A DNA stretch of 64,000 nt from Candidatus Poribacteria bacterium (GTDB lineage: Bacteria > Poribacteria > WGA-4E > WGA-3G). Made by a program: the position numbers and the translations under genes. This document shows, in pieces, positions 393-63,617 of this stretch; the first letter of the stretch is position 1, and each line of letters begins with the position of its first letter. The notes beneath the pieces were generated by a model that searched no databases, was not told the DNA's origin, and was given only the letters and a program-made list of their open reading frames with translations. The stretch lies in the NCBI GenBank assembly GCA_965205025.1, contig CBDBFU010000013.1:224001-288000 (forward strand), written 5' to 3'.

Positions 393-427
393 GGCTTAAT
401 AAGGACGTGAGACGTAAAAACCTAAAA

Positions 428-498
428 ATTGCTATTTATATAGTTCACATTACGATCACTCTTAGTAGTCCCCCTGATAAGGGGGATTTAGGGGGTTT
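428..498. repeat. Dispersed repeat with CCCCCTGATAAGGGGG hairpin; inverted diverged copy at about 8688-8758
   Basis: Sequence aligns by eye with the reverse complement of 8688-8758. Confidence 0.7.
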
Positions 499-544
499 CT
501 TTAATTGATAATGCACGATCATTATTTAGAAATGGTATTACATC

Positions 545-655
545 ACGATGTTTCCTCACGCCAGCGGCGTGATATGTCTATAGAAATAAGAAGCAGAAAA
601 CTCTGCACTCCAGCGGAGTGCTATGTAGAGATGTCCGCTTTGGACATAAATATGC
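545..655 (+). repeat. 111-bp hairpin-doublet repeat (CACGCCAGCGGCGTG / CACTCCAGCGGAGTG); near-identical copy 5760-5870, related inverted copies about 63123-63265
   Basis: Direct comparison of the copies. Confidence 0.9.
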
Positions 656-659
656 AACC

Positions 660-917
660 CCTTGGTAGGTTCACCCCAGACCCAGTAGGCGGGGAATGCT
701 GTATAGTATTCATACCCGGGGAATGCCATAAGGCATTCATACCGTTGATTCCTTGATTCCTTGATTCCTTGAGTCCCGTAGGGACGGAATGTCTATAGCA
801 CAGGTGTATACCCGTAATTGAGTCCCGTAGGGACGGAATGTTTATAGAATCCCTTTGAACTAAATTAACTTCTCCGATTTGCTATTAATGTAAACTAATT
901 AAGTAAAATTGGTAATA
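660..917. repeat. Composite repeat (GAATGC hairpins + GTCCCGTAGGGAC doublet + AT-rich tail); inverted copy about 62197-62434, partial copy about 50864-50957
   Basis: Blocks align with the reverse complement of 62197-62434. Confidence 0.85.
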
Positions 918-1025
918 CTAAATTGACACGTAATAATACGGATGTCAGATTTTATAAGCAAAATATGAGCATATAGAGTAAAATATGGATAAGAGACTTT
1001 ACCAAATTATGCACGGAGATAACTT

Positions 1026-3968
1026 ATGGCAAGAGATAAGAGAGAGAAAGAGGTTAAGGATTACCGACACGACTCATCAACACGAAAGAATAACCCACCC
1101 GCTGGTATCGCTGGACAGGCGAGAACACCCGAAACTCCCAAACAGGAATACGCATATAATCCACATTTACCACCCATATTGCGCTCCGATCCGAACGGTG
1201 ATGTAGACAAACTTCACGAACTCCTCGAAAGAGCACAGAAACAACCCCTCACATCAGAAGAGGCGAAAAGAATTGCGGATGCACTCAAACATCATGAACC
1301 GTGGTTAGAATGGTCAGGGAAACAAGAAGCAAAATCCTTTACTGTTGACCCAGTTGCATTGCATGTGCATGAACGCGTGAGTGCAAAAGCAATTTTAAAG
1401 GTAGCAGAACGTGAAAATGTCCAACGCCAACTCTTTGCTGACCCACAGCAGACATATAACGAGGCGGTCGAGTTTTACAAGCACGATGTGGATTGGGCAA
1501 ATAGGCTAATTCTTGGGGATAGTCTGATGGTGATGAGTTCTCTTGCGAAACGTGAAGATCTTGCTGGTAAAGTACAGATGATTTACATTGATCCACCCTA
1601 CGGTATTAATTTCTCTTCTAATTTTCAATCAACAGTATTCCAACGTGATGTAAAGAATAGAGACCAAGATTTGACGCGTGAAGCAGAACAGGTAAAGGCA
1701 TACCGTGACACATGGACACTCGGTATACATTCCTACCTTGCATATCTCCGTGATAGGTTAATTGTTGCCAAAGATTTGTTGACAGATAGCGGGAGTATCT
1801 TTGTGCAAATTAGTGATGAGAATGTTCATCGGGTAAGGGTTATAATGGATGAAGTGTTTGGTAGTAAAAATTTCTATGCTATGATAAATTTCAGAAGCAT
1901 GAGTCCTTTGGGACAAAAAGGAATCGCTCGAATTTATGATTATATCATGTGGTATGCCAAGGATATAGATCAGATAAAATTTAGACCGCTGTTCTTTTAT
2001 AGAGACTTAATGGATGAATCAGAGTTCTCTTTTCTTGATAGAGGTGACGGAACCTATGAGAAATTGCCAAGATCCGATATCCAAAATCTATCCTCTGAAC
2101 AATTGCATAAGGTATTTAAGAGATCAGTTCTAACATCTTCTGGATATACACCATCTTGCACCTATGATTTCAAATATGAGGGGAGTACATTTAGTCCGTT
2201 AAGTCGTAAAAGTTGGCGTACAACTTTAGATGGAAATAGACGTTTATCATTAGCTAAAAGGCTTTTAATCTTAGGAAAGAATCTCTACTATCGGCAATAT
2301 CATAGTGACTTTCCATTAATTCAGATGGAAAATAGTTGGACAGATACTGCCGCTGGATTTAGCGATTCTAAACGATATGTTGTTGAAACTAATCCAAAAA
2401 TAATTCAACGCTGCTTACATATGACTACTGATCCTGGGGACCTTGTCCTTGATCCTACCTGTGGTAGTGGTACTACTGCCTATGTGGCTGAGCAGTGGGG
2501 TCGACGGTGGATTACAATTGACACCAGTCGGGTTTCTCTTGCATTAGCACGACAACGTCTGTTAACAAGTAGTTTCGAGTATTATGAACTGAAAGATGAA
2601 ATGAGTGGTGTTGCAAGAGGATTTATTAATAAAGTCGCACCACACATCACGCTCAGAAGCATTGCCCAAAACACCGCCCTTGACCCTATCTTTGAAAAGC
2701 ATGAACCCATTCTTAAAGAAAAATTGGATACATTGAATAGTGCTTTGGTTGAAATTACAGACGACATCCGATCGAAACTCCTTGCGAAACTTGTAGAGAA
2801 AGAAAAACGCGATGGGAAAAGATCCATCACAGAGGCAGATAGACGACGATGGCAACTACCAGAAACGGAATGGCAGGAGTGGGAAGTGCCGTTTGACACC
2901 GATCCGGATTGGACGGATGCATTAAAGAAAGCGTTGACCGATTATAGAGAAGCATGGCGTGCAAAGATGGATGAGGTAAATGAATGTATTGCTGCTGCCT
3001 CTGATGGTGAGGAGTTGGTTGACCAACCAGAGATAGACAGAAGACGAATTCGTGTGAGTGGTCCCTTTACTGTGGAAGCGGTGCAGCCTCCTGAAGAATA
3101 TCTTGATATGGAGTCTCCTATCGGTGGAGAACCCGAAGAATTGGACGAAACATTTGATGAAACTGAAAATGATACACACGAAGATGTGAATGCAGAGGCG
3201 TATCTTGACAAAATGATTCGTCTTTTACGTGAAGATGGTGTGAAGTTTCCTGATGATAATAAACAGAAATTCGCTACGCTGAATCCTTTTGATGGTGGTA
3301 TTTTACACGCTGAAGGGAGTTGGGAAAATGGTGATTCGGATCGACGGGTTGCGGTCGCGTTCGGTCCACAACACGGACCTGTGACCGCAGTACAGGTTGA
3401 ACAGTGTGTACGTGCAGCATATCGAAATGCATTTGATGATCTTATATTTGCAGGTTTTAGTTTTGATGGTGCAGCACAAGCTGCCATTCAAGACGATCTG
3501 AATCCGAGTGTACGTATCCACATGGCTAATATCAGTCCTGATGTGGTGATGGATGACCTCCTGAAGAATACTTCCTCCACGCAATTGTTTACGGTGTTCG
3601 GATTGCCGCGTACAACCCTTGAGAAACAAGACAATGGTGAGTATGTTATTACGATGGAAGGGGTGGACATTTATAATCCTGTGGATAACACCTTGAGTTC
3701 TGCTGGTGCGGATAAGGTGGCAGCATGGTTTCTTGATTCTGATTATGATGGTCGAACTTTCTGTATTACGCAAGCGTTCTTTCCTGACAGAAAGGCATGG
3801 GACAAAATTGCGCGTGATCTTAAGGGTGTGATTGACGCGGAGAGTTTTGAGATGTTCAGTGGAACAGAATCGTTACCATTTCCTATGGGGCAACATAGAT
3901 GTGCTGCCGTTAAAGTCATTGATCCGCGCGGGAATGAGGTGATGCGGGTGCATAATTTGGATGCGTAG
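1026..3968 (+). CDS. mod: Type III-like restriction-modification DNA adenine methyltransferase (Mod, beta class)
   Basis: Motif IV YIDPPY precedes motif I VLDPTCGSGTT; long C-terminal region ending AVKVIDPRGNE, typical of Mod partners of the Res at 11289. Confidence 0.9.
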   Translation: MARDKREKEVKDYRHDSSTRKNNPPAGIAGQARTPETPKQEYAYNPHLPPILRSDPNGDVDKLHELLERAQKQPLTSEEAKRIADALKHHEPWLEWSGKQEAKSFTVDPVALHVHERVSAKAILKVAERENVQRQLFADPQQTYNEAVEFYKHDVDWANRLILGDSLMVMSSLAKREDLAGKVQMIYIDPPYGINFSSNFQSTVFQRDVKNRDQDLTREAEQVKAYRDTWTLGIHSYLAYLRDRLIVAKDLLTDSGSIFVQISDENVHRVRVIMDEVFGSKNFYAMINFRSMSPLGQKGIARIYDYIMWYAKDIDQIKFRPLFFYRDLMDESEFSFLDRGDGTYEKLPRSDIQNLSSEQLHKVFKRSVLTSSGYTPSCTYDFKYEGSTFSPLSRKSWRTTLDGNRRLSLAKRLLILGKNLYYRQYHSDFPLIQMENSWTDTAAGFSDSKRYVVETNPKIIQRCLHMTTDPGDLVLDPTCGSGTTAYVAEQWGRRWITIDTSRVSLALARQRLLTSSFEYYELKDEMSGVARGFINKVAPHITLRSIAQNTALDPIFEKHEPILKEKLDTLNSALVEITDDIRSKLLAKLVEKEKRDGKRSITEADRRRWQLPETEWQEWEVPFDTDPDWTDALKKALTDYREAWRAKMDEVNECIAAASDGEELVDQPEIDRRRIRVSGPFTVEAVQPPEEYLDMESPIGGEPEELDETFDETENDTHEDVNAEAYLDKMIRLLREDGVKFPDDNKQKFATLNPFDGGILHAEGSWENGDSDRRVAVAFGPQHGPVTAVQVEQCVRAAYRNAFDDLIFAGFSFDGAAQAAIQDDLNPSVRIHMANISPDVVMDDLLKNTSSTQLFTVFGLPRTTLEKQDNGEYVITMEGVDIYNPVDNTLSSAGADKVAAWFLDSDYDGRTFCITQAFFPDRKAWDKIARDLKGVIDAESFEMFSGTESLPFPMGQHRCAAVKVIDPRGNEVMRVHNLDA

Positions 3969-4083: not shown

Positions 4084-4235
4084 GAGTCCCGGGGAATGCC
4101 TAAATGGCATTCATACCCGGGGAATGCTAAATAGCATTCATACCGTTGATTCCTTGATTTGGTAGGGACGGAATGTCTATAGAAAACGTGTTTAGCCACT
4201 ATCTTGAGTCCCGTAGGGACGGAATGTCTATAGAA
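4084..4235 (+). repeat. GAGTCCCGTAGGGACGGAATGTYTATA hairpin doublet with a 71-nt insertion (4091-4161); other copies 770-846, 8559-8633, 50878-50957, 62267-62381 (-)
   Basis: 4162-4232 is essentially identical to 8564-8633. Confidence 0.9.
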
Positions 4236-4257
4236 AACGTACTGACCCTAAACAATA

Positions 4258-4333
4258 AGCCCCATCGGGGCGAAAGGTTTGTAGAAAAGCATATAAAAAA
4301 TGAGGTTCAGCCCCAGCGGGGCGAAAGGTGTGT
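4258..4333 (+). repeat. AGCCCC-NNN-GGGGCGAAAGGT hairpin doublet; other copies about 6011-6084, 6286-6360 (-), 8143-8217 (-), 8364-8437, 62017-62194 (-)
   Basis: Six doublets with the same architecture are visible. Confidence 0.9.
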
Positions 4334-4455
4334 CGAAACATAATGTCTGAAGAGAAAACTCACGAATTATATGATTTTATACAGCAATGCAGTGATGAAA
4401 CGCATTTGTGTATTGTGAGCTTTATTTTTAGATAAATACAAACGGAGGTAAAAAC

Positions 4456-17105: not shown

Positions 17106-17470
17106 TTATTTTCTCCTTCTTATTTTGATCGTATATGATTAATCATTGTTTCCGTAAATTCGGTTTAGCAGTGCCGATAAATTTCCTATCGTTTCTAAAA
17201 TCGCGACACCTTGTTTGTAGTGAGTTGTCATAGTCATGATTTTCCCTTTGTTAATATATATATACATTTCATCTGAAATTGTTTAGTTTTTTTTAATGCA
17301 GCGAGTAATATCTAAAAATCGTTGAAAGTTACACGAAAGTCAATCATAGAATATGCTAAATAAACGTGAGTTTGATAACTCAGGTTTTTATATTCGTCGA
17401 ATCAACGGTATGAATGGGCGTATGACATTCCCCGTGGTACAAACCGCGGAATCAACGGTATGAATGCCAT

Positions 17471-17585
17471 ATGAAGATTAATTTTTAAATTCGGTAATTT
17501 TGGAGAAATATGCAGTGCGGTTGGGAAACCGCACCTACCAGGTTTGGGGAAATTAGAATTACCGAAATATTTTCTTAATCTTCAT
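17471..17585. mobile_element. MITE-like element ATGAAGATTAA...TTAATCTTCAT inserted in a hairpin loop, carrying REP B; larger copy 50691-51039
   Basis: Roughly 28-bp imperfect TIRs; host GAATGCCAT^TAGGCATTC is restored on removal. Confidence 0.75.
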
Positions 17586-17669
17586 TAGGCATTCACCGCC
17601 TACCGAGGGGTGGAACAGGATTTTGAAGGATCGGGAATCGGAGTTCCCTCCTAAAACTATTAAATTATC

Positions 17670-17738: not shown

Positions 17739-17812
17739 GGGCGGGTAGCTCAGGTGGCTAGAGCGACAGCTTTACACGCTGTAGGTCACAGGTTCAAGTC
17801 CTGTCCCGCCTA
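17739..17812 (+). tRNA. tRNA-Val(TAC)
   Basis: GGGCGGG/CCCGCCT acceptor, ACAGC-TTTACAC-GCTGT anticodon arm, GGTTCAAGTCC T arm. Confidence 0.95.
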
Positions 17813-17831: not shown

Positions 17832-17906
17832 GGACTCGTGGCGCAGTTGGTTTAGCGCGCCTGCCTGTCACGCAGGAGGTCGCGGGTTCAAGTCCCGTCG
17901 GGTCCG
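17832..17906 (+). tRNA. tRNA-Asp(GTC)
   Basis: GGACTCG/CGGGTCC acceptor, CCTGC-CTGTCAC-GCAGG anticodon arm, GGTTCAAGTCC. Confidence 0.95.
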
Positions 17907-43842: not shown

Positions 43843-44047
43843 AATAATGATTCCTCAAGGTAAGTTGTTAGATGTATTTCACTATAATAAGTTAACCCTA
43901 TCCCTGCCAATTTGTCAAGGAGTTTGGCACTGCAAGGACACCTAATAATTCAATTGACACGTCCTGAAGCTTGCTATAATATGATTGCTATTAAGCAATG
44001 TCTTACAAAGATAAACATCCATTTGGGGCAATAGAAGGAGCATCACG

Positions 44048-44931
44048 ATGCCCGAACGCGTAAATAAAGCAATTGAATTGTTAGAAAATGATCAACCGGT
44101 CTTCTACACTGGTAGCCACACAACTTCAAACTTAAACTATGATGCAGGCTTAGCGATGGCAGATACATGGGCAGACTATATCAACATCGGTATGGAGCAT
44201 GGAAGTCTTGATCTTGCTGGATTAGACGGTTATATGCGAGGTCTCGCTGATGGTGGACCAACAAAGAGCGGACACAAAACTCCCGCAGTTATCGTTGAAT
44301 TACCTGTTGATGGTATAAGTGCAGATGTTATTCGGTGCAAACGGATGGCAGATGCGACAACTCCTTGCTCGTGGTGTGCATGGTCTTTTGCTATGTCATG
44401 CTGAATCGCCAGAAGCAGTAAAAGCATTTGTAGAAGTCTGCCGATTACCCATTCCAGACAATCGGGGTTGGATCGCAATTAAATGTCGGTAGGCGTGGTT
44501 CTGCTGGACAGGGATCTGCTGCACCTATCTGGGGAGTTTCGGTTGACCAATACCTTGATACCGCAGATCCGTGGCCACTCAATCCTAAGGGAGAACTGCT
44601 CCTCGGTCTAAAGTTTGAAAATAAACGTGCACTGGGGCTAACGTTGAAATGACAGCACGGGTACCGGGGAATTGCTTTTGCTGAATGGGGACCAGGCGAT
44701 ATGAGTATGTCCTTTGGTTATAAGAATGTGCCTAACCCTCGACCCAAGGAATTACAAGACGCAAGGGACCGTGTGTTTGCTGCTTGTCAATCGGCAGGGC
44801 TGAAATTCCTTGAGAGTGCATCACCAGATACAATTGAAGCAAGCATTGATGCTGGTGTAAGAATATGTGGTTCAGGCGAAGAAACTGCACGCATTGGACG
44901 TGCTTATGCTGGTAGGACAATGCCAGTCTAA
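44048..44931 (+). CDS. HpcH/HpaI aldolase-family protein (frameshifted)
   Basis: GMEHG, LARGVHGLLLCH, ADPWPLNPKGELLLGLKFE, WGPGDM across frames. Confidence 0.8.
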
Positions 44932-44949
44932 TCTAACATAGCAGAACTT

Positions 44950-45046
44950 ATTCCATTTCAAATAATCAGAGTCTCTTTAATGTAGCATAAACTTCCAGTT
45001 TGTGCGGTATTTCAAGATATACTTTACAACTTTGCATGGGATAAAC
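44950..45046 (+). repeat. About 115-bp element containing REP family A (GTAGCAYAAACTTCCAGTTTGTGC); copies 51166-51268, and expanded 50622-51108 and 61891-62538 with ATACCATTTCT/AGAAATGGTAT ends
   Basis: Shared TCTCTTTAATGTAGC...TATTTCAAGA...ATGGGATAAA blocks. Confidence 0.8.
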
Positions 45047-45070
45047 GACTATATATACATTGAGGAAAAT

Positions 45071-45807
45071 ATGGCATTAACAGAACAGGAAATGTTGGAA
45101 GAATTACAAAAATATGATACACCATCAATTACGAATGTAGTGGCAACTTACCCAGGAAGTCCACTATGTCTCGGACTATACAACCCTTGGACAGAAAAAT
45201 TGGTATACGGATACCTCTATAAAATGTATGTATCCTGACTTAGGAGCGATGGCGGGTTATGCAGTAACCTGTGTCTACAGTATACCAGACCCAAACTATA
45301 ACGAACTCTCCTTTATGGATGTAATTGATGCCATGGATGCATCCAAGAAACCGACGATCTTTGCTTTTGAACAGAAGTTTCCAGAGGAATTAAAGGATAA
45401 AGTCGGATTGGCTGGTGGTAACATGACCGCTGCTATGAAATCCGTCGGTTGTTTAGGTGCAATTTCTAACGGTCCATCACGGGACATTGATGAAATCCGT
45501 CCTATGGAGTTCCAATATCTGTTGAGCGGTATTACACCCGGACACGGTGCTATGGCTGTTCAGGCTGTTAATGTGCCAGTTTCTATAGTTGGAATGGATG
45601 TTGCCCCCTGGAGAGATTATCCATATGGATGAGAATGGTGCATGTAAATTCCCCGCAGATAAATTGGAAGCCGTTCTGACGAACGTTAAAGCATTGCTGG
45701 ATGAGGAAGGGGACCGCATCGGACAATTGCTATCTGGACCGAAGACAGCAAAACAGGTTCGTGCAATCTTTAGTGGACATACCTACTCCGAAGATGATGA
45801 GGAATAG
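45071..45807 (+). CDS. RraA/HMG aldolase-family protein (two frameshifts)
   Basis: YDTPSITN, GYAVT, GPSRDIDE, PGEIIHMDENG; extra bases in the A run near 45196 and C run near 45605. Confidence 0.8.
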
Positions 45808-45816
45808 CGTATAATT

Positions 45817-45962
45817 TAACATGAGTTTGATAAGACACACTGTAACCTGATCTTTTAGTTAACACCAGAGTGCACAAACTGGAAAGTTTGTGCTACAAAG
45901 ACTATCTTCAGGACAAAATTCTGTTTATCGAACGGACATTTTTTATTATCAAACTGACGTTA
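45817..45962. mobile_element. MITE-like shell TAACRTGAGTTTGATAA...TTATCAAACTGACGTTA carrying REP family A
   Basis: Same TIR family as 14391-14513, unrelated interior. Confidence 0.7.
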
Positions 45963-46012
45963 TAATTTACCCATTATATTAGTAAGATTTAGACTAAATA
46001 TACTTGTAACTC

Positions 46013-46876
46013 TTATAAAGTATCATCAAAATAACGAATCATCCCAGAAAAAGAAGCACCTGGTGCCTTCATTCCTTCTATCATATCTTCGATACGTTGC
46101 CGATTAACTTGACTGATTCGTTCATCTTCAAGTGCCTGTCTATATGTGTCATAGTGTTTGTAAATTTCATATCTACGACTTTTGAGCTCCTTGCGATTTA
46201 GACCGTAAAATTCAATAGATGCCGTAGCAATAGATTCAATTTCAGAACTTTCAGATTGAACGATGATTTCAACTTGTAGATTATCAAGATCACTGGTAAT
46301 TTCAACTTCTCTCAGCACATCATCAGCACGCCATGCAAAGTAGTTAGACGGCTCATCAAAATAAGGATTAAGCAGAAGTGGACGTTCTTGTTGATGTAAG
46401 CAAATGAATGTGTTAACTTGATCTGTATCCAGCGGGTCGGGAGCAATTTGACCTACTTTAGCTGCTATAAATTTATCCGTTGTATTGTGTCGAATTATAG
46501 GAGCGCGCATCCTCCGATTTTGGATTGGGAAATCATCTTTCTTGAACCTCTGATTACAAATTTGACATGAAACGAGATAATTGTCATAGCAATAGGTGAG
46601 CCACCAATAGATGCTTTTAGGACGATAATGTTCAACATCCCCAAAGGCAACCACTGAAGTTAGTGCTTCACAGTAGGCACATTTATTCCCTGTCTCAGCG
46701 AGAAGTTGTTCTTTCGCTGGCTTCCAGCGATAGGATCTGAATTCGTGATTATCCTTTTCACCGCGTTTGATGCGACGTTCATTGAGCAGCAATTCCTTTT
46801 CAAACGCTTCTTTTCTTTTACCATAAAAGTTGTGATGGATGGCATTTTTCGAACGAATCCTTCTTAGGCGTATCAC
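46013..46876 (-). CDS. HNH endonuclease (PtuB/Septu-like)
   Basis: CAYCE, DVEHYRPK, NYLVSCQICN, LLLNPY; overlaps the ATPase stop. Confidence 0.85.
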   Translation of the reverse strand: MIRLRRIRSKNAIHHNFYGKRKEAFEKELLLNERRIKRGEKDNHEFRSYRWKPAKEQLLAETGNKCAYCEALTSVVAFGDVEHYRPKSIYWWLTYCYDNYLVSCQICNQRFKKDDFPIQNRRMRAPIIRHNTTDKFIAAKVGQIAPDPLDTDQVNTFICLHQQERPLLLNPYFDEPSNYFAWRADDVLREVEITSDLDNLQVEIIVQSESSEIESIATASIEFYGLNRKELKSRRYEIYKHYDTYRQALEDERISQVNRQRIEDMIEGMKAPGASFSGMIRYFDDTL

Positions 46877-48135
46877 GATTTTCCTTCCCGCAACTCTTTT
46901 TGGATTTCTTGCAAAAGAATCGTGTGCTCTTCAGAAGGTTGTGTATTGGAGCTGCCGCTAATAGGCAGGTTAGTAATGGAGGTAGTTAATTCCTCCAGTT
47001 CATTGCGTTCTGTAGACGATAAATCTGCTTTGTCCCGGAGGTAACGATATCGATTTTTCATGTCCTCAACCTCTTTTGACTCATCGGTATCTAACCCGAA
47101 TGCTGGTGACATCGCCAATTGGTGTAAAAGGAGCGTTTTTGGGGTGCCAGCAAACGGATAGATGCAAATATTCTCTGCTTCACGCACCAAACAGTGGAGT
47201 TCTCCCTTATCCGCCTGTTGCGCTGTCAAGGGTGAGTGCGTTGTCACAACAAATTGAAAATTTGGCAACCATTCCTTAAGAAACGAGAACAGTTCGCGTT
47301 GACGCTTTGGATGGAGATGCAAATCAACCTCATCAATGAGGAGCAGCCCCCTTGCAGTAAGCGGTTGTTCCTTTAAGTCATCAAAGGTTTCTAAAACCTG
47401 GAATAACAGATCACCCATCCAAGCTGCCATTGCAAGGTATCCATCGCTAAGGTTATTTAACGGCACAATTCCATCTGGCGTTTTAAACAGCAATTGTCCA
47501 CTCTGTTTATCAATACGGTGAAACTTTATCTCTGGCAACAAATTGCTGAGTACCTCACGGACGGTTTCCAATCCTGTTCGGTTTTTAAGATAGTCAAGGT
47601 CCATTGCCCATGAATCAATTGGCGTAGTGGCTGCGTCAGAATCAAACAGGGTAGCGACGCGTTGTGCCCTTTTGTTCGTGAATCCCGATGTCTTTGTTCT
47701 CCGAGAGTTTACTGTATTGAGCCGTCGTGACGCTCCAAAACCGAGAACAAAATAGTCATTGTTTTTGCTGTTTAGTGAATCATCAAGCCACGCAAGACGC
47801 TTTTTGTTCCTTACTATGACATCGGCGCGCGTATCTTTAGATTCAATCCTTAAATTTATCTTTTGTTCTTTTCTTTCTTTGGTGACCAAAACGGCAGAGA
47901 TTTCACAATTTTGTGCTTTATACCGAATCCAGTCTGAGGGTTCCTCCAACAGATCGGCTATCGCGTCACTACCGCCAGTCGCCAGAGCGATGGCTTTCAG
48001 AAGCGTACTCTTACCAGTGCCGTTTTCAGCAAGGAGCAGGGTCCACTTACGAATTTCGCTATTCTCGTCTTCAAATGATAAGGAAATATCGGAAAAACAT
48101 TTGACGTTGTTCAAACGGATTGATTTGAGAAACAT
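46873..48135 (-). CDS. ABC/AAA_21 ATPase (PtuA/Septu-like)
   Basis: ENGTGKST, LSDGY, LLIDEVDLHLHP, TTHSP. Confidence 0.88.
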   Translation of the reverse strand: MFLKSIRLNNVKCFSDISLSFEDENSEIRKWTLLLAENGTGKSTLLKAIALATGGSDAIADLLEEPSDWIRYKAQNCEISAVLVTKERKEQKINLRIESKDTRADVIVRNKKRLAWLDDSLNSKNNDYFVLGFGASRRLNTVNSRRTKTSGFTNKRAQRVATLFDSDAATTPIDSWAMDLDYLKNRTGLETVREVLSNLLPEIKFHRIDKQSGQLLFKTPDGIVPLNNLSDGYLAMAAWMGDLLFQVLETFDDLKEQPLTARGLLLIDEVDLHLHPKRQRELFSFLKEWLPNFQFVVTTHSPLTAQQADKGELHCLVREAENICIYPFAGTPKTLLLHQLAMSPAFGLDTDESKEVEDMKNRYRYLRDKADLSSTERNELEELTTSITNLPISGSSNTQPSEEHTILLQEIQKELREGKS

Positions 48136-48368
48136 CTAAACTCTCCTTAGGATAAAGGTTCCAATCCATAGACTGAGCTACCAGAGAATTAAGCCTTCGT
48201 GGATCCTTTCATGATGTCACCAGCATTGTCAAACAAAGAAGTACCTGGTTCCAATCCTCCTTATGTGTAATTGTGAGGTACACTCTTTAGAATATGATAA
48301 CGTGAAATAGGTCACACAACAAGAGTTGTATGAGATGTAATCTCTATGGACAATTCTTTAACCATCAC

Positions 48369-49157
48369 CTACTCCGGTTTTGGCGTAGTCAAATCACCAC
48401 TCAAGATAGTAGGACACCAGAACTTCTCAATATATTCAATAATCAGATGCGTACCCGCTTCATGGCTAACATAAGGAGGCTTGTAAGGATTATACATAGC
48501 ATCCGTCAGATCACGTGCCAAAACCACATTGAACCCCCATTTTACCATCGGCTTAATGGCAAATGACCGTCCAAGTACACACATATTTGTGTGAACACCC
48601 ATAATGATTATATTTTTTATGCCTTTTTGAGCAAAGAGGTTATACACCTCTTGTCCGTTATCACTAATTGCATCACCATCGTCAATTTCGATAGCCTCAT
48701 GTTGCCTATGCCACGCTTTGTATGATTCTGCTTCCCCAGTATCTGATCCACCATCAGAAGCATCCACAGGTTGCGGTGGATCCTCCATTTCACGTTCTGG
48801 TGGAGGGTCAGCATGTGGAATTTCAAGGATAGAACGACGGGCAGGATGATCTTCATAGAAATCCATCGTATCTGATGGGGCATGGATAATCTGGACACCG
48901 CGTTGTCTCGCACGATTAAGGACAATGTTCATTCTCGGTGCCATGATATTGACGCGTTCGGTTGCACCCCAAGACCAGTGTTCATTCCACATATCAACAA
49001 CAATAATCGCTGTTTCACTTACCTTCCAATCAATCTCTTCTTCAAGAATCCGCCAAGCATTTCTGCCTGTTGTACGCTTTTCCTGCCTACGATGACAAAG
49101 TGTGAGTGTCGCATTGGACGTTGCTGAGAAAATATAACGACCTATATCAAGTATCAT
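48369..49157 (-). CDS. Isochorismatase/cysteine hydrolase family protein
   Basis: TAIIVVDMW, MGVHTNMCV. Confidence 0.85.
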   Translation of the reverse strand: MILDIGRYIFSATSNATLTLCHRRQEKRTTGRNAWRILEEEIDWKVSETAIIVVDMWNEHWSWGATERVNIMAPRMNIVLNRARQRGVQIIHAPSDTMDFYEDHPARRSILEIPHADPPPEREMEDPPQPVDASDGGSDTGEAESYKAWHRQHEAIEIDDGDAISDNGQEVYNLFAQKGIKNIIIMGVHTNMCVLGRSFAIKPMVKWGFNVVLARDLTDAMYNPYKPPYVSHEAGTHLIIEYIEKFWCPTILSGDLTTPKPE

Positions 49158-49195
49158 AATTCAATTACCTCCAATATGTATGGTCAGATATAACC

Positions 49196-49690
49196 CTAAT
49201 TTGTAGAGCGTTGAGAAGTTTCATATTCCACATCTTTACGCAAAATGAATGCATCTTCACCATTACGATAGTATCTTTTGCGGATACCATAAACTTTAAA
49301 ACCAAATTGTTTATAGAGTTGTTTAGCAGCAGTATTATTGGCACCAACTTCCAGGTACACCTCATTACCTGCTTCCTTACGGACGATCTCCAATGCTGAG
49401 GAGAGAAGGTATTTTGCAACTCCCTGTCGTCTATAATCAGCATGCACAGCTATATTCATGATATGTCCTTCACCGCAGAAAATGTAAAAGACAATATATC
49501 CAACGATGTTGTTATCTATACGTGCCACATAACAGTGCGTATGTTTTTTACGACTTCGGAGTTCCCGTTTAAAGAAGGATACATGCCACGGATCAGGAAA
49601 CGCTTCCCTTTCTATTGCCATGACCTTATCAAGGTCTTCCTGTTCCATTTGTTGAAAGATTATATTTGGTGCCGATTGTATACTACTCAT
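49196..49690 (-). CDS. rimI: Ribosomal protein S18 alanine N-acetyltransferase
   Basis: IEREAFPDPW, NIAV..YRRQG, LEV..N..A..LY..FGF...RKRYY..GEDA. Confidence 0.9.
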   Translation of the reverse strand: MSSIQSAPNIIFQQMEQEDLDKVMAIEREAFPDPWHVSFFKRELRSRKKHTHCYVARIDNNIVGYIVFYIFCGEGHIMNIAVHADYRRQGVAKYLLSSALEIVRKEAGNEVYLEVGANNTAAKQLYKQFGFKVYGIRKRYYRNGEDAFILRKDVEYETSQRSTN

Positions 49691-49850
49691 TTCGGCATTT
49701 TACCACGTACGGTTTATGTCGTCAAGATTGCTGAATTAGGAGGATTTGTAACGTTTTTGGCATGAATATCACGGAATCATAGGGTAATTCTTGTGTAAAT
49801 TTACTGTTTTTATCAATTCACAATCGTTATATTTATATTTCCAATATGCT

Positions 49851-49888
49851 GAAAAAAGTTACACTTTTTGTCACATGGTGTGACATTG
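49851..49888. repeat. Left arm of 38-bp inverted repeat (partner 63618-63655)
   Basis: GAAAAAAGTTACACTTTTTGTCACATGGTGTGACATTG, 37/38 identical to the reverse complement of 63618-63655. Confidence 0.92.
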
Positions 49889-51330
49889 GAAAAACCTCTC
49901 TCCCGTCAGTACTACACTGGGTTTAGAGACATTTTTTTAAAGTTACAAGAATTTGCAAAAATGACGGAACTTGTGTCTTTTACTTTTCTTTTGATCCATT
50001 GATTTGGAGGATTCTCTGATCTTACCATTTGCTATATTTTGAACCATCGGACAGGGAAACACCAATTCTATGAAGAGAATTATATCTGTATGGACGATTC
50101 GTAGTAATGAGATACACTGTAGTTATCTGGTTTTTATGATATTCTGTTTTGTTTGAAGTCGGTCTATTTTCAAGTTTTTTGAGTTTTTCAAGTTTTTCAA
50201 GTTTTTTGAGTTGCTTTTTAAGAAATGATTTTTTAATGAGCCGAAAACCCTGTTGGGGATTGGGATAACAAAGGATTTGATTAATCGGTGTAAAATTTTA
50301 AAAATTAGAAAAACTAAAACAATATTCGGTTGAATTCGTATTCATTTTTCTCTGTATCTGCTTATAAGTTGATAATTCTGAATGTTTTCGTTGTAATTCT
50401 AACATGGATTTTCCTATTCTGCAGATAAATGTGTTAGCTTTAGTTTACAATTATTGAACGATATAGTATTGTATCATTTTATTTGTATTTTGACAAATAT
50501 TTTTAATTTATTTTATGTTATTGTGATATGTGTATGTTAGTTGTTAGATGTATTTGTTTTCTTCATTTTAATTTTAGTCTTATGGAATAAGTGTGAAATT
50601 AGAATTTGATAGTTTATACTAATACCATTTCTATAAATGAATCTCCGATTATTAGGTGATATTTTTGTTTTGAAATACTACACAAACTTCATGAAGATTG
50701 ATTTTTAAATTCGGCAATTCCAATTCCTCCACCCCTTGGTAGGTTCGGTTTCATGAGGATTAAGTTTTAAATTCGGCAATTCCCATTTTCCCAAACTTGG
50801 TAAGTTCGGTTTCCTAACCGAACCGTAGTTTGTAATTTCCTAACCCTTGGTAGGTTCGCCCCAGACTCGGTAGATATTGAGTCCCATAGGGACGGAATGT
50901 CTATAGCAAGAGGGGTTGCTTCACCTTCTTGAGTCCCGTAGGGACGGAATGTCTATATTAAAAAAATATACGGACGGGAAACCCCGTCCCTACGATAATT
51001 TTATGAAATGTATTACCGAAATATTTATTTAATCTTCATCCAGTTTGTGCAGAATTTCAAGACATGTATAGCAACTCTTCATGGGATAAAAATTTATAGA
51101 AATGGTATAACTGTTATTCAGAAGCTCAAAAAAACAAAAGTATACTAATCTAACTAAATTGATCCTGATAATTAAAGTCTCTTTAATGTAGCACAAACTT
51201 CCAGTTTGTGCAGTATTTCAAGACTTGCATAACAACTTTTCATGGGATAAAAATTTATAGAAATGGTGTTAGATAGGGAATTGGAACTGTGTTTATGTAC
51301 TAATGGTCATAATTCACATCAGTCAACAAC

Positions 51331-52920
51331 TCACTCACCAAAGATGTCTTTGTGTAGTTCATCGTAAACTGCCATACCAGGTTGAATAAGTTTAGCAAGA
51401 ATATCTATCATAAAACTTTCTTTTTTATTACCCAAAGAAACGGAGTCAATAATTCCGTTGGCAGCATTGTGCATGTCTTGAGCAATAGGTTTCAAATCAT
51501 CGTGAGTTTTTGATTTCGTTACAATCGTGCGTTTGTTGAGTGCTTCAGTTTTCGCAGTCAATAAATCTTGTATTTTATCTTGCTTACCATGTTCTTCACA
51601 CAACTTTGTCAGTACCTCATCATCAAGAAGATAACTTTCAATAGATTTCCGAGACAAAGTTCTAATACCCTTTGCAGTCTCCCTTTCTATTTCATCGTCA
51701 GTTGCCTGATCCCTATCAACAATCCCAATTACATTAACACTCTCTGCGATTTTTCCTATTGCAAGATTTGCTGCTGTTACAGACTTTACTACGTTTTCTC
51801 TTGCTCCTAAGGAAGTAAAATGAATATTGGGATATTGCTTCTTAAATATGTTTTTATAACATTCTTCATCAAAACCTTCACCTTCGCAGAACACAGTCCG
51901 ACCAGTAATAACTAATTCAGCGAGATCCCCGAGAGCAACTTCATAAGTTCGCTCCCAGAAATCTGGATTGGGAGTGACGGGGGTAAGTGTTACCGGCACG
52001 TCAAAATCGTGACCTCCGAAATCTAGAAATACGACTGAATCTTGATCTTCATGCCAGAGATCTTGTGCCTTGCGCACCATGCCTGCAGAATGGGTAGCAA
52101 TCCAAAGTTGAGAATTGTCAGGAATCAGTTTGTAAAGTTGTTCAAGAAGCGGACCCTGAAGTTTTGTGTGTATATGTGCTTCCGGTTCGTCGATGCAAAA
52201 CACGGTATCATTGAACTTTGCCTTGACAATTATAATGTCCAGAAGCAAATCTAAGGCTGCCTTTTCTCCACCAGATAGATTTTCGTATGAAAATCCGTGA
52301 CTTATCCCTTTGTTAAATTGGAAAATCTTATCGATTGATGGAGTACCTAAGTTAGTAAGAAACAGTTGCGGATCTCTAAACAATTCCTTTAATGCGTCTC
52401 GTAATTGTCCGTAAATCTCGCTTTGAAGATCACCAATCGTTTTCGATGATATTTCACTGTTTGAGCTCCGTTTTATCCATAAACTTAACAACTCACTATA
52501 ATTTGCCTCAACAGCTTCATCATTCTCTGACATTCGAGAAATTCTATTTCGAAATGAACTTTGATAGGTCCTTCCGGCCTTACTAATCCTGCTGTCGTTC
52601 CTATAGGCAGTGCGTACATGCACGCATTCCCTCCACTCCTTCGGAGTTTCCGGACTCACTGCATGAAAATGCACATCCGGCTCTTTGAAGTTGACAGTGA
52701 TTTGTCCAGATTCGTCAAATTTAACATAGTAGGAATCAGTGAGACGGTGCTCAGGAACTTCACCCGCAAGACTTTTATATCTGTGCAGAGCATCAAACAC
52801 CGAAGATTTTCCACTCCCATTCGGACCAATCATTACTACGAGACGTGCCGTTTCAGGCAACTCTATCGTTAGGTCTTTGAAACGTCTGAAATTTTTCAAC
52901 TTAATTGATTTTATCTTCAT
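51331..52920 (-). CDS. ABC-type ATPase fused to TOPRIM-like domain (OLD/PARIS-like)
   Basis: GPNGSGKS, LSGGEK, IDEPEAH, ATHS; C-terminal VFCEG..D, GIVDRD, SIESYL; start overlaps the MTase stop. Confidence 0.8.
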   Translation of the reverse strand: MKIKSIKLKNFRRFKDLTIELPETARLVVMIGPNGSGKSSVFDALHRYKSLAGEVPEHRLTDSYYVKFDESGQITVNFKEPDVHFHAVSPETPKEWRECVHVRTAYRNDSRISKAGRTYQSSFRNRISRMSENDEAVEANYSELLSLWIKRSSNSEISSKTIGDLQSEIYGQLRDALKELFRDPQLFLTNLGTPSIDKIFQFNKGISHGFSYENLSGGEKAALDLLLDIIIVKAKFNDTVFCIDEPEAHIHTKLQGPLLEQLYKLIPDNSQLWIATHSAGMVRKAQDLWHEDQDSVVFLDFGGHDFDVPVTLTPVTPNPDFWERTYEVALGDLAELVITGRTVFCEGEGFDEECYKNIFKKQYPNIHFTSLGARENVVKSVTAANLAIGKIAESVNVIGIVDRDQATDDEIERETAKGIRTLSRKSIESYLLDDEVLTKLCEEHGKQDKIQDLLTAKTEALNKRTIVTKSKTHDDLKPIAQDMHNAANGIIDSVSLGNKKESFMIDILAKLIQPGMAVYDELHKDIFGE

Positions 52921-55900
52921 TCATCACTCTCCGTATCTTCCACACCATAAAGCATTGATACTTCCTTATCCAATTTCTTTTCAAGACGAGATACTTTTTC
53001 CTCAAGTCCTTTCCGCTTAGCATCCAGTATCTTGTTAACCAATTCAACAACAGGTGCTTGCTGTTCAGAAGATACATCTGGAATAGGTAGTTGTTTCCAA
53101 TCGTCTGGGTAAAGGTTAAGATTGCTACGACGATTGGCAAGTAGGAAGTCTCTGGCAAAACTGGAATTCATTACACTAATTAGGAACTTAATAGAAAAAC
53201 GACGACTTGTCTTTTCAAGATCTTCTCGATTGGGTAAATCAGGCTTTTTCTTTTCATCTCGGTAACGTGTCTGCTTTTGAATAGATCTATTTTTAACTTG
53301 TGACAAGTCATGCCATAGAAAAAATCCAACACAACTGTGTGTGAAAACAAGACATTGATTATCATAACAAGTTATAGGGTTCGATCCAGCTATTGTTTTT
53401 ATTAATATTTTTTTCTTCCACAGCATACATTTCTGGGAACGTTGGTCTATAAAATTTACCTGGGGCACGAGCCGTGTTCCATTCAATCCAAATGTTTGTT
53501 TTTGGAAGCCAACGTTCTAAATGCTTTCCCTCAACATACGGCTTGCTATGAGTATGATCTTTTTTATCTGACACGACATCAGCAGTAACAAAGTTTTCTT
53601 CATCTTCGGGGTCACTATTAGGTCTCAACCCATAACTAATATAACAGATCTTGTCAAGCGTTACCGATGAAGTAAAAATTTGTGGTCCATCGGAATCTTC
53701 TGGGAAAAATGCTCTTTGTGTAAGATTCTTCTGTTCGTCAGTTGGTAAGAGATGAACTGAACCAAATTCCGGGTAATGCTCGCGCCGATCAGGTTTGCTA
53801 TCCTTACCATCTGTTCTTTGAAAAAGATAAATTACATTTCGTATACCAACAGATCCGAAAAGTGGAACTTTACTACAAAAATCAAGACGCAATATCTTGC
53901 TATTATCCAAAAACCAATTCTGCGATTTCTGTGCATATTTTGCATGACAATAGGCATTAGATACGATAAGCGTTGTGAAACCCTCTGGCTTAAGCAATTT
54001 ATAACTTCGTTCAATAAACGGAATAAACAGATCCCATTTCTCATATAGCGTTTCATACTGTTTACTATCTTTAATCTGCAGACGCATCTCCTTAATCTGC
54101 TGTTTTTTCGCTTGGTCTTGCCCACCTGCATCTGCTCTAACATACGGAGGATTGCCGATGGTAATATCAAACCCGTCTTTGATACCAAACATCCACTCTG
54201 GATCGAAGAAATCCGCTTTATCATTCTGGTCATACGGATCCCATTTGGCAATTCTTTTAGCCTCCTCAACACCTTTAGTGAGATTTGCCTCATAACCTCT
54301 AAATTTTTTCTCTAACTTCTCACGCAATTGTTTTTGGTCATCTTCATTGGGTAGTTGACTAACCTGATATGAAATTTTACTTTTTTCCTCAGAACGTAAT
54401 TCATTATACTTAATTACTAACGCTTCCTCTAATTTGTTACGGCAGTCTTCCTCATCTTTAATAAAGTCCAATTTCTCTTGACGATCATTTTCACTGAAAT
54501 ACTTTTTACGGATACCCTCAATTTTCTGACGTAGTTGTCGAATATTGCCATCATCAAGCAATGCCTGTAGATCCTCTTTTTGTAGTTGCATTAACCCTAT
54601 AAGTGTATTCGCAGCAACAAACTTGGTTTCTAAGTTTGGTAGTGGACGAATACCGTAGTTATCATCAGCAATTTCGTTCGGTTTCTGCTCAATAACCAAT
54701 GAAATAAAAAATCGTAGTTTGGCAATAGTAACAGCAATCGGTTGGATGTCAACACCGTAAATACTGTTCTGAATGAGGTAAAGTTTTCTACCATAGTTAT
54801 TATACTGATTTTCTTCAGAAAAAACTTCATCAATAACATCACGTGATCCTTTTCTGCTTGTCGGATCGGGGATATTGTTTGCCTGATCAATTTGTTGCTG
54901 CTTCCAACGTTCGTTTTCCGGATCCAGTTTTCTAAGGATCAAAACTAATTTATTCAGAATTCCCATTGGGAACGCACCGGAACCGACTGCAGGATCAAGA
55001 ATTTTGAGGTCGTCTACCGCTTGAATCATCGGTTCAATCTCAGAATCATAGATCATGTGATCATTGGACGAATCTTTTTCTCCGAGTAGGTCATAGGCAA
55101 GGAGATCATCACGTAGACGTTCTTCAAAGAATTTAGAGTCTCCATCCCCGGGAGCAACCTTCTCAAGAAAATAAGCGATAAGAGCCTCGTCTACCATATA
55201 GTCAACAACGTTACGGCGGGTGTAGAAGGATCCGGTTTCCTTACGTGCAAGGTCCTCGGTTTCAGGATTATACACACCAAGTAAATTTTCAAACACCTGA
55301 CCAAGCAGTTCAGGGTCAAGTGCTACTTCCTGATCTACCGGTGTATTTTCTTCAACTGTAAACTTATAATTTTTGAAAATATTATAAAGACCTTTTTCTT
55401 CTTCAAAAAACAGTTTTGCAGGGACACTTAGTTTTTTTTGATGTTTATCCCAATCTGTGAAGCAATCAATACGTTTACCTCCTGCGCGTTTGCCTTCAAA
55501 AGAATCAAGTGAGTCAAACAAACCGCCATTGACGAATGGTACTTGTTTTAGGTGTTTTAAAAAGACATCTTCGTTTTTAATCAGATCGGCATATCTATAT
55601 TTGTTTGCATTGCGGTGGTCCGGGTTTCGTTTAGGAGGAGAGGATTGTTCAGCAGTTTGTATGTTGGTATCATTAGGGATACGAAATTCGCGTTCTATAA
55701 TCGGTGTGTTTAAGGTAGCAAAAAACAAGTTTTGAAGTATGGCCTGATAGTAATCAGATGTTTCATAATTAAAATTATTTAGGTGATTTCTCGCTCCCTC
55801 TTCAGTAAATATATCTGATGGTACGAGATTATTCTTTTCTTTCAGAAACCAGATAAATAAGATACGCGTTAACATGCGGATAACCTGCATCTTATTCTCT

Positions 55901-56664: not shown

Positions 56665-56667
56665 AAA

Positions 56668-61756: not shown

Positions 61757-63617
61757 AGTGTTATTTTAATTTGAACAAATACTTTTGCTAAGGATAATAT
61801 CTAAATTATAGTAATGTTTCATATAAATTCTACAGATAAGCTGTGAATTTTTCAAGTGTAAAATTTACCCACCATTGAGTGTTTAATGTAATACCATTTC
61901 TGATAATTAAAATCTCTTTAATGTAGCATAAACTTCCAGTTTGTGTCCTAACTCTTTTTGTAGCACAAACTTCCAGTTTGTGCTTAGTCTACATAGTTTG
62001 GACAGTTTTAAACGATACACATTTTGCCCCTCGAATCAAGGAATCAATGGTATGAATGTTATTTAGACATTCCCCCAAATCTACGCCGAATGCGCGTATG
62101 GCATTCGGCGGGTATGAACGCCATTAGGCGTTCCCGGGGCTTAGACCTTGGTTAGGTATGACGTTTCTACAAACCTTTCGCCCCTCTGGGGCTTCTAATA
62201 CCAAATTTTACTTAATTAGTTTACATTAATAGGAGATCGGAAAAGCAATTTAGTTTTAAAGGTATTCTATAGACATTCCGTCCCTACCAAATCAACGGTA
62301 TGAATGCCATTTAGGCATTCCCCGGGACTCTATTATGGGAATATATACTTTTGCTATAGACATTCCGTCCCTATGGGACTCAAGGAATCAATGGTATGAA
62401 TGCTATATAGCATTCCCGCCTACTGGGTCTGGGGAATTAGAATTACCGATTTAAAAAATTAATCTTCATCCAGTTTGTGCGGTATTTCAAGACATATATA
62501 ACAACTGTTTATGGGATAAACATTTATAGAAATGGTATCAGATGAAAACCAAAGATGCATCTCGTTCACACTTAAGTTATATAAATATTAACATATATGA
62601 TTCACGGAGAATTGGTATAATTAAAATTATAGACCTTTATAGAATAAGGGCTCGTAAAATTGCTCCGTGAAGGTTTCCGTGAAAGTGCAATCATCTCAAT
62701 TCGCAAAAAATTAACACACTTTTCCTATCAAACTATCAACACATACAAGATTATCATATAAGGACTTATGCACTACCAAGGTATGTATGTTCGATCCACG
62801 AATCGAACCCCTTTATAGTCGGGAATCGGAGTTCCCTCCTACAGAAGAATATAATGCTTAAATTGATGTCTATGGGAACAGGTATTCTGATACCCAAACC
62901 TCTTATCCGCGTAATCCATGAAATCTGCGTAATCCGCGATTCAGACAAATGTAGCGTTGATTCAAATGAGAATTATGAAACTTAATAACCTTGTACCTAT
63001 TCTTAGTGTAAACCCTATCAAATTCTAATTTTACACATTTCTTAAAAATAAAATGAAGAAAGCACACATCTCTAACATCAAACACATTAATAATATTAAC
63101 CCAAGTTGTCACGCGTTTACTTACATAGCACTCCGCTGGAGTGCAGGATGTTGATATGTCTTTTTCTATAGACATATCACCCCGCTGGGGTGAGGGAAAG
63201 TGTCTGAAAAACTGTGCTGAGTTGATATGTCTTTTTCTATAGACTTATCACCCGCTGGGGTGAGGAAAGTGTCTGAAAACTGTGCTGAAAGGATCAAATC
63301 CGTTAGTAGCAACTTGAGTTAATATTAGTCAAAATGAAAATAAAATCAGGTGTTAGAACACGAACTAAAATCAAAAATAAAAAGTATAGGCTACATATTC
63401 AGAGGAAAAATAAATGATGAATATCCATAAAAACGATCCTAATTACGAACTTTCATTTACGTCAAAAAATGCACCTATTTTGACGGTAGAAAATGTCAAA
63501 ATCAGAAAAGACAACAAAAACACAAAATCACACATTTTTGAATTTCTTAAAAAACCAATTCAAAGTGGAGTAAAGCCAGTCTATAACAGGGTTTACAGAG
63601 GTAATTCACACTAATTT

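Follow-up and report, generated by a model that had tools for sequence, protein, structure and literature searches.

A GTAT-tagged micro-element nested in REP hairpins of a Poribacteria genome, gained or lost at some sites recently

Repetitive extragenic palindromic sequences, known as REPs, are short, high-copy hairpins with a conserved tetranucleotide at the 5' foot. Together with the REP-associated tyrosine transposases (RAYTs) they make up the 'REPtrons', in which REPs are also arranged as bacterial interspersed mosaic elements (BIMEs) and as inverted doublets (REPINs). The insertion sequences IS1397 and IS621 target REPs. Full insertion sequences are also more generally recorded as using REPs as targets (PMC3733652; bioRxiv 10.1101/2021.07.10.451892), and TnpA-REP has been shown to cleave and strand-transfer REP single strands at sites chosen via the hairpin-foot tetranucleotide (PMC8266576). 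REP-type repeats have been seen inside other palindromes as well. GTAG-23 of Thermomicrobium roseum lies in CCGSSCC(n3-4)GGSSCGG palindromes, hundreds of which are empty in that genome (Di Nocera et al. 2013, PMC3733652), and the same article places GTAG-15 dimers of Anabaena variabilis and CGTC-1 dimers of Halothiobacillus neapolitanus in small palindromes. The present work concerns an element, called U here, in a stretch of 64,000 nucleotides (contig C13:224001-288000, 'the window') from a genome of the Poribacteria, a group of sponge symbionts. U lies within the loops or against the feet of REP hairpins. This observation was confirmed genome-wide and family-wide, and some gains or losses of U are recent, but an enzyme that would move it was not identified.

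U resembles the components of REPtrons in being a short, high-copy hairpin with a conserved 5'-foot tetranucleotide and compensatory changes in the stem, and in occurring in intergenic clusters that mix hairpin types in alternating orientation. Its host hairpins are bona fide members of such systems with flanked Y1 transposase genes. It differs in that the tag is GTAT and not GTAG or CGTC, an octamer-repeat leader precedes the hairpin, the modules stand in direct tandem and not in inverted doublets, U lies inside REPs rather than beside them and no U-flanked RAYT was found. The inverted-doublet organisation of REPINs and BIMEs is absent from U, yet U regularly runs antiparallel to the adjoining host REP. 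The degenerate REP tags listed in a passage of PMC3733652 are GYAG, GYRG, GTRG, GTMG and GTGG, and GTAT is not among them. The palindrome cases in that article share with U a REP-type element inside another palindrome. There, however, they form a side remark without junction analysis, the inserts are GTAG or CGTC repeats and the targets are not REPs with cognate transposases, whereas U is lodged in several host families, in its own loop and at hairpin feet, and has changed recently among near-identical paralogues. The nesting of REP-like micro-elements in palindromes is already known; U adds unusually clean evidence of recent gain or loss.

Elhai and colleagues reportedly described, in 2008, the small dispersed repeats (SDRs) SDR1-8 of the Nostocaceae, which are 21-27-nt hairpin repeats nested one in another. 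No enzyme is known for them. SDR5 is recorded as inserting inside the palindrome HIP1 (PMC4390886, PMC5861425). The likeness to U is one of behaviour, in mobile-looking small hairpin repeats, in nesting and in the lack of a known enzyme; the SDRs belong to a different phylum, while U targets REP hairpins with Y1 partners and has a repeat leader and tandem hairpins. A cyanobacterial SDR5/HIP1 origin was rejected, as HIP1 (GCGATCGC) was found 9 times against about 173 expected and the closest named matches of one window protein were metagenome-assembled genomes of Candidatus Poribacteria (71-75% amino-acid identity). With IS200/IS605 elements and the palindrome-associated transposable elements (PATEs) U shares the lack of terminal inverted repeats and of target duplication, a hairpin near the element end and family Y1 genes in the genome. 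It has one hairpin type where those elements have distinct left and right ends, no strand bias was seen, there is no conserved 4-5-nt target, which in PATEs also flanks the left end, and no U motif was found at the high-scoring or the multicopy IS200/IS605 loci of relatives. Miniature inverted-repeat transposable elements (MITEs) of the IS630/Tc1 type have terminal inverted repeats and a TA or short duplication, and U has neither. REP-targeting insertion sequences likewise have REP hairpins as preferred landing sites but encode a transposase, whereas U is 35-100 nt long and has no coding capacity. No description of U was found among the open-access papers searched on Poribacteria transposases and repeats or on nested RAYT/REPIN elements, and no Rfam family covers it; within the window only two tRNAs match Rfam.

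Anatomy of U and its copies in the window

The source genome comprises 5.66 Mb in 33 contigs with about 38% G+C. A fuzzy hairpin search of it gave 437 candidates, from which 232 arrays were kept because they had an AATCAA leader or contained two or more hairpin modules; the 205 dropped were lone loose matches without a leader, mostly in ordinary sequence. U consists of an AATCAA/GGAATCAA leader followed by a GTAT-tagged 27-nt hairpin, the minimal copy being about 35-36 nt. In the forward sense the leader starts (C/G/A)AATCAA and continues with 0-4 more GGAATCAA octamers and then C or T. The hairpin part has 1-5 modules, each made of GGTATGAA, a first stem arm of four bases, a loop, the matching four-base arm and TTCCCCG, and the modules follow one another head to tail in direct tandem with a 27-nt period, up to 5 copies. 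A preliminary description of this DNA had noted that octamer and hairpin numbers vary from one to three; the variation is real, but the range genome-wide is 1 to 5 for each. The largest array (genome C2:166588-166760) has four leader units and then five identical 27-nt modules. The ends, AATCAA... and ...TTCCCC, are not inverted repeats. Core motifs are far more frequent than chance allows, GGTATGAATG occurring 316 times in the genome against about 11 expected and AATCAAGGAATCAA 94 times.

With its 7-bp stem the U module is a short (20-40 nt), high-copy palindromic hairpin of the kind by which REPs are recognised. The inner stem was perfect in 232 modules, compared with 47 on average and 68 at most when arm partners were shuffled, and six compensatory arm types were present: TGCC/GGCA (103), TGCT/AGCA (92), TGAC/GTCA (17), CGCC/GGCG (15), TGTC/GACA (4) and CGAC/GTCG (1). 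The inner stem is kept by compensatory change and the hairpin is constrained. As single-stranded DNA the 36-nt unit has a predicted fold of -6.9 kcal/mol (z -3.8), and in the predicted single-stranded folds of filled hosts the host arms still pair while U forms one or more branches.

Some copies in the window split the host REP called H1. At 4084..4090 (plus strand) stands its 5' arm GAGTCCC, which is followed by a 71-nt U array on the minus strand at 4091..4161 (leaders CAAATCAA, GGAATCAA and C, then two 27-nt GTAT-tagged modules) and by the 3' arm and tail (GTAGGGACGGAATGTCTATAGAAAACG; plus strand, 4162..4190, with GTAGGGAC at 4162-4169). Both hairpins of the array are retained in the single-stranded fold (-21.2 kcal/mol, z -5.5). 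An empty, uninterrupted H1 lies 45 nt 3' of the filled one at 4206..4239 (plus), with the same 5' arm and an intact GAGTCCCGTAGGGAC at 4206-4220, and beyond it are two empty copies of a second host REP, H2, one with the hairpin GCCCC-ATC-GGGGC and a GAAAGGTTTGTAGAAAAG tail at 4259..4289 (plus) and the other at 4310-4335. Near the other end of the window, at 62280..62330 (plus), an H1 in reverse orientation is split by a minimal 36-nt U at 62288-62323, with GTCCCTAC at 62280-62287 and GGGACTC at 62324-62330; in the fold the host stem is retained and U is a branch (-10.7 kcal/mol, z -4.1). The identical junction of these two copies had been reported in the preliminary description, and its strings and coordinates proved exact. 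Its empty homologous site, near 819-840, was confirmed too. The empty H1 paralogous to 62280-62330 is at 820..850 (plus), with an uninterrupted GAGTCCCGTAGGGAC at 820-834, and when window 400-1000 was aligned with the reverse complement of 62120-62760 the paralogous segment extended over about 230 nt, in which the 36-nt unit was the sole large indel at the H1 hairpin.

A split in the loop of another REP family was likewise verified. The H2-type REP at 62026..62140 (plus; GCCCCTC at 62026-62032 and GGGGC at 62136-62140) contains a 103-nt composite at 62033-62135 made of U, a variant AATC-leader hairpin (GCCGAATGC...GCATTCGGC) and another GTAT hairpin; when it is folded as a single strand, the arms of the host pair with each other and the three hairpins between them branch off. 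The further copies that had been listed were all found again. The array at 691..772 (minus), with two hairpins and three full octamers, abuts an H1 REP at 771-799, and its paralogue, at 62382-62417, consists of a single hairpin behind fewer leader units. The latter belongs to a run at 62354..62417 (plus) in which an H1 REP (62354-62381) is directly followed by U and then by a remnant (GCCTACTGGGTC) of a third host hairpin, REP-C. At 17399..17447 (plus) a U with one leader and one hairpin (17399-17433) precedes a degenerate REP-C hairpin (GTGGTACAAACCGC), and at 17448..17598 (plus) a MITE of about 116 nt, whose inverted ends are ATGAAGATTAAT / ATTAATCTTCAT, interrupts the hairpin loop of a U. 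This MITE lies at 17470-17586 and the arrangement recurs, for example at genome C2:230968, so U is also a landing site for another small element. The ATGAAGATTAAT MITE carries a REP-C hairpin, and in other copies of the MITE this hairpin holds U. Directly 3' of this repeat cluster are tRNA genes at 17739-17812 and 17832-17906.

Filled and empty sites across the genome

The left and right flanks of the 232 arrays were cross-tabulated. At least nine distinct contexts were found, all in or beside REP-type hairpins and including the loop of U itself. Loops account for 18 arrays in H1, 27 in H2, 20 in REP-C (GGT(G/T)CGGT...AACCG(C/A)ACC) and 7 in the loop of another U. Hairpin feet account for 59 arrays directly 5' of GTGGTTAGGAAACCGC, which is the 3' foot of REP-C in REP orientation (left contexts 21, 11 and 10, with 17 others), 16 at the 5' foot of CCCCCTTATCAGGGGG, and 7, with related cases, between AACCGC and CCTACC, that is at the 5' foot of REP-C between the GTAG tag and the hairpin. 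Smaller classes include a CACCCC...GGGGTG REP, a GGGAATCGGAGTTCCC-CTAC REP and chimeras of an H2 left arm with an H1 right arm (3). In 73/232 arrays U lay between the arms of a perfect stem of 5 bp or more, compared with 247/5000 random positions and with a mean of 18 and a maximum of 29 arrays when partner flanks were shuffled. Insertion directed at loops, as first proposed, describes only part of the material: loops are strongly enriched yet hold about one third of the arrays, the largest classes being at hairpin feet, which most of the remaining arrays abut.

No array with both flanks in wholly unique sequence was seen on inspection of the arrays. The right flank is nearly always a piece of a REP or of U, while more variety is seen on the left. 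U keeps a fixed orientation relative to its host, with no opposite-sense array in H1, none in H2 and one in REP-C. The right junction is always CCCC followed by G, and in all four loop hosts it continues GG(G), as it does after CCCC within tandem arrays of U (CCCCGGGTATG).

Empty hosts are plentiful, with 202 H1, 119 H2 and 127 GTAG-tagged REP-C (338 REP-C-type hairpins in total). For 157/232 arrays the joined flanks match uninterrupted sequence elsewhere in the genome, the match being required to cover at least 15 nt on each side with no more than 4 gap positions and often covering the full 45+45 nt at 90-98% identity. U is therefore an insertion relative to its hosts, as had been claimed. 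Comparison of filled with empty copies shows no duplication and the replacement of 0-5 host bases: T in the H2 loop, TA in REP-C and none or one ambiguous C in H1. In a local tandem array of six H2 units the last one alone is filled, which is an in-place event.

The most telling case is a 420-nt composite of two H2, one H1 and REP-C hairpins that is present in six copies. Their shared core of about 330 nt differs by a handful of single-base changes, and the copies are distinguished mainly by their pattern of U occupancy at five sites. Writing 1 for filled, 0 for empty and a dash where a site has no score, the occupancies are 00000 (C5), 00001 (C22), 01001 (C20), 11101 (C14), 0010- (C18) and 1111- (C7), site 3 of the last also having one octamer and one hairpin more. 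Four copies make a nested series, C7 agrees with it as far as it can be scored, and C18 is the odd one out, its state at site 3 being in conflict with site 2. Among 40 genomes of the genus searched, the composite was found complete in this one alone, and the occupancy changes can accordingly be dated as young from this distribution.

That the filled H1 copies do not go back to one ancestral filled copy is indicated by their tails. The 26 filled H1 fall into tail haplotypes of 10, 7, 4 and 3 with two singletons, and the same four haplotypes account for 107, 5, 55 and 28 empty H1 respectively. With filled copies in all four main haplotypes, the filled H1 are not one clonal subfamily and have more than one origin. 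Contigs from public short-read data break at the repeats; one contig, from run X1, skips 4091-4161, but it has 25 nt on one side and any empty H1 is a possible source. Orthologous empty sites for 4084-4190 and 62026-62417 were looked for in G004, the species nearest to this one, with 86-94% identity across aligned blocks, and no synteny was found there.

Host REPs, their Y1 genes and the distribution of U

This genome has four Y1 genes, three flanked by H1 and one by a GTAGCGTAAACTTCCAG-type REP. A 158-aa TnpA of IS200 type (PF01797, E 2.7e-28; NF033573, 83.7 bits) is present in three copies on contig C27, at C27:51637-54981, 71131-74475 and 85496-88840 (loci L065-L067), with inverted H1 on both sides; tandem 50-nt H1 units also flank these loci. 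Among the loci of TnpA orthologues in this and other species of the genus, flanking hairpins of the same build were found in 11/13, and in the remaining two no open reading frame (ORF) was found. The build is a 5-6 bp stem with a loop of 3 nt and a tail that ends in TATAG or TGTAG. Each species has stems of its own, and H2-type stems flank the orthologues in G018 and G008. Read from the sequences, this is clear co-variation of enzyme and REP. A stretch upstream of the H1-flanked TnpA, CGTTGATTTGGTAAGGAC, was considered as a conserved enzyme site and rejected, since it is missing upstream of the orthologues in other species; it is probably a decayed U/H1 junction.

In G017 a RAYT (NF047646, 122.8 bits) has REP-C, GTAG-GT(G/T)CGGTT...AACCG(C/A)AC, on both sides. 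On its minus strand, at 57574-58242, the window holds a RAYT-like gene (222 aa; single-copy) with an NF047646 match of E 2e-18, which is below the curated cut-off, and a PF01797 match of E 3.4e-4. Arrays of a further GTAG REP (GTAGCGTAAACTTCCAGTTTGCGC type) flank it in opposite orientation on the two sides (window 57200-58460). By these associations the hosts of U are identified as true REPs with cognate Y1 genes, and since the H1 TnpA, the REP-C RAYT and the window RAYT each have their own REP, U is nested in REPs of at least three different Y1 systems. More copies of the GTAGCGTAAACTTCCAGTTTGCGC-type REP lie at about 44970-45021, 51156-51224 and 61885-61984. Orthologues of the window RAYT at loci L129 (G007) and L130 (G049) have GTAGCACATTCATCCTTGATTGTGCTAC as the flanking REP. 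The 12-nt loop region of GTAGCACATTCATCCTTGATTGTGCTAC contains, on the other strand, AATCAAGGATGAATG, which equals the U leader and the start of the U hairpin minus 10 nt; this likeness may hint at the origin of U or may be coincidence.

The stretch 44001-64000 has no synteny in G004 and includes a PLD-nuclease/SNF2-helicase protein at 58466-61756 (minus), while a large DNA methylase lies at the opposite end of the window at 1026-3968. The 44001-64000 region looks like a variable defence-type island with repeat clusters at its borders. Between 3969 and 8908, over about 5 kb, no ORF reaches 150 aa and several small repeat families are crowded together: H1, H2, CACGCC/GGCGTG and GCACTCC/GGAGTGC hairpins that have TATAG tails, as well as AT-rich repeats.

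The distribution of U was surveyed with a 17-nt pattern in which one mismatch was allowed; the reversed control gave 0 or 1 match per genome. The pattern was found in 37/37 genomes of the same genus and 53/57 of a sister genus in the same family, in 0/5 from other genera of the family, and as single stray hits only in 3/51 from other families of the phylum. Copy number per genome ranged from 0 to 549 hits. The U at window 17399 is common to the orthologous site in G004, which has one octamer more.

How U may have been joined and spread

The explanation that we favour, though tentatively, is that U is a non-autonomous REP-like module which is joined at single-stranded REP positions by resident Y1 enzymes and then amplified as a passenger. 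U would be joined into REPs where the folded REP remains single-stranded, in the loop and at both hairpin feet, without target duplication and with 0-5 host bases replaced. The enzymes would be the resident HUH/Y1 transposases (RAYT, IS200-type TnpA), cutting and rejoining REP single strands. A U within a host REP or MITE would then be copied along with its host, since the host stem is spared when the branch lies in the loop or past the foot, so that most copies would be passengers, and octamer and hairpin numbers would drift later by slippage or further joining. The position of U at loops and feet, the single-strand chemistry of TnpA-REP and the REP-like build of U together make joining by Y1 enzymes in trans the most economical mechanism, and the intact host stem, despite the branch in the loop, would explain why these positions survive. 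The enzyme, the single-stranded intermediate and the direction of individual events, gain or excision, are what we infer here. We put this explanation at somewhat less than an even chance, because the link to an enzyme has no direct support and because some U-rich genomes have no detectable Y1 gene.

A number of results weigh against such a scheme. The foot tag of U (GGTATGAA) is GTAT and not the GTAG or CGTC of REP/RAYT systems. There is no conserved tetranucleotide or pentanucleotide target 5' of U, the sequence there being TCCC, CCCC, GCCC, CCAC, AGGC or GGGC according to context. No Y1 gene flanked by U was found in this genome, and inverted pairs of U enclose no Y1 gene, the ORFs between them being a kinase-like protein and a 116-aa ORF without a family; a weak NF047646 match on contig C32 (E 0.2) was discarded as its translation is not Y1-like on reading. 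A motif scan of 41 Y1 loci of relatives placed a single U beside a Y1 gene, and this U sits within a flanking REP of another family (G004, L097); at locus L134 a single U-core match lies about 1.4 kb from the Y1 gene. No HUH gene flanked by GGTATGAATGCC hairpins, as had been suggested, was found here or at the 41 loci. Nor is the abundance of U tracked by any Y1 class: G017 (454 hits) has the REP-C RAYT only and the present genome (263 hits) lacks that class. In G023 (one contig, 205 pattern hits), G001 (131) and G010 (142) no Y1 match was obtained with PF01797 (E <= 0.001), with the RAYT protein of the window (E <= 1e-5) or with NF047646 (E <= 1), a result that holds for these queries and does not prove absence. 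Strand bias on the scale of replichores was not seen in G017 or in this genome, with origin and terminus unmapped. In G017 the strands were 81 plus / 83 minus, and the first 100 listed of the 164, over 3 Mb, were 52 plus / 48 minus with no two-arm pattern; in this genome de-clustered contig counts gave a chi-square p = 0.14. An apparent per-contig bias (for example C14, 2 plus / 22 minus) was gone once arrays within 3 kb were merged, and the GC skew of this genome is too weak and noisy for a strand-bias test. Finally, the U variants go with their hosts, for 15/18 H1 fillings end in TGCCATTTAGGCA at the right junction, 20/21 arrays in an 'aaattcg' MITE context in TGCTATTTAGCA, 11/16 arrays in a context designated 'B' in TGCCTTAGGGCA and 14/27 H2 arrays in TGCCTTATGGCA. 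Free hopping from a single pool is a poorer fit to such host-specific variants than gene conversion or a spread of hosts already filled. Three 20-kb loci here contain 30 U modules while six syntenic stretches of G004 (40.5 kb) contain 0, G004 not being poor in U (171 hits genome-wide), and entire U-bearing clusters, both MITEs with two U inside and REP arrays, are present or absent as blocks between the two. Much of the copy number therefore reflects passenger amplification and not repeated hopping. The reading in the preliminary description, a REP-sized hyperparasite with structure-directed targeting, is supported in part.

A rival account gives U no mobility of its own. Illegitimate recombination would have brought U into each host family on one or a few occasions in the distant past, after which host enzymes amplified the filled REPs and MITEs, with ectopic gene conversion or recombination between near-identical paralogues. 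The variants that follow their hosts, the uniform orientation in H1 and H2 with no opposite array, the species indels of whole U-bearing MITEs and REP clusters, and the failure to find a cognate enzyme, with some U-rich genomes lacking a detectable Y1 gene, all suit this history, and the single incompatible pair of sites in the six-copy composite is explicable by one conversion tract. It would, however, need at least nine separate entries, each exactly at a loop or foot, which chance recombination does not predict. The entries cannot all be ancient, as five sites have switched among six near-identical copies, and the presence of all four main haplotypes among filled H1, the seven cases of self-nesting in U's own loop and the one REP-C filling in opposite relative orientation also speak against it. 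We regard this history as somewhat unlikely. It is also conceivable that a polymerase stalls at the loop or foot of a REP hairpin extruded on single-stranded template, moves at G/C microhomology to a U array elsewhere, copies one or more modules there and returns, no transposase being involved. The lack of terminal inverted repeats and of duplication, the replacement of 0-5 target bases, the variable number of modules with tandem hairpins of mixed type, the fact that no strand bias was seen and the U-rich genomes without a detectable Y1 gene would then be expected, as would the right junction, CCCC-G(GG), being the same as within U tandem arrays. The microhomology amounts to merely 1-3 nt with none evident at the left junction, and the constant AATCAA left end and the fixed orientation in each host suggest defined ends rather than random switch points. 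Template switching is not known to yield a dispersed family of hundreds of copies, and we consider it improbable here.

Another resident enzyme might be responsible, either an IS630-type transposase with MITEs that target hairpin tips or an unrecognised recombinase of the two U-bearing genera. The ATGAAGATTAAT-ended MITE in the loops of U hairpins shows that an activity targeting hairpin tips exists in this genome, and the confinement of U to two sister genera would fit a recombinase of their own. But U, having no terminal inverted repeats and neither a TA nor a 1-bp duplication, is unlike the substrate of a DDE transposase, and no candidate gene was identified, so that such an enzyme seems very unlikely. 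A more specialised possibility is that U behaves as a 'homing' micro-element of REPs, the cargo in the loop of a filled REP being handed on to empty members of that REP family, whether by the Y1 enzyme of the host family or by hairpin-guided copying without a transposase. Although this is a doubtful proposition, which we think about as improbable as template switching, it would explain both the host-specific U variants across all host haplotypes and the high U copy number of genomes in which no Y1 gene was detected.

The spread of REPs is still called poorly understood (PMC8266576). U offers a rare resource in this respect, with hundreds of natural filled/empty pairs at nucleotide resolution, some of them reflecting very recent events, which span several REP families with identifiable Y1 enzymes. 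This pairing opens the chemistry of joining to a direct test, for which oligonucleotides and three or four small proteins would suffice. The filled sites also show that a REP loop can carry cargo with the host stem preserved, which may explain the large self-complementary loops of some REP families. They amount to layered parasitism among the smallest mobile DNAs known, and if the 'homing' proposal were true, U would be a parasite of domesticated REP-RAYT systems and would represent a new propagation route for a DNA of 35 nt.

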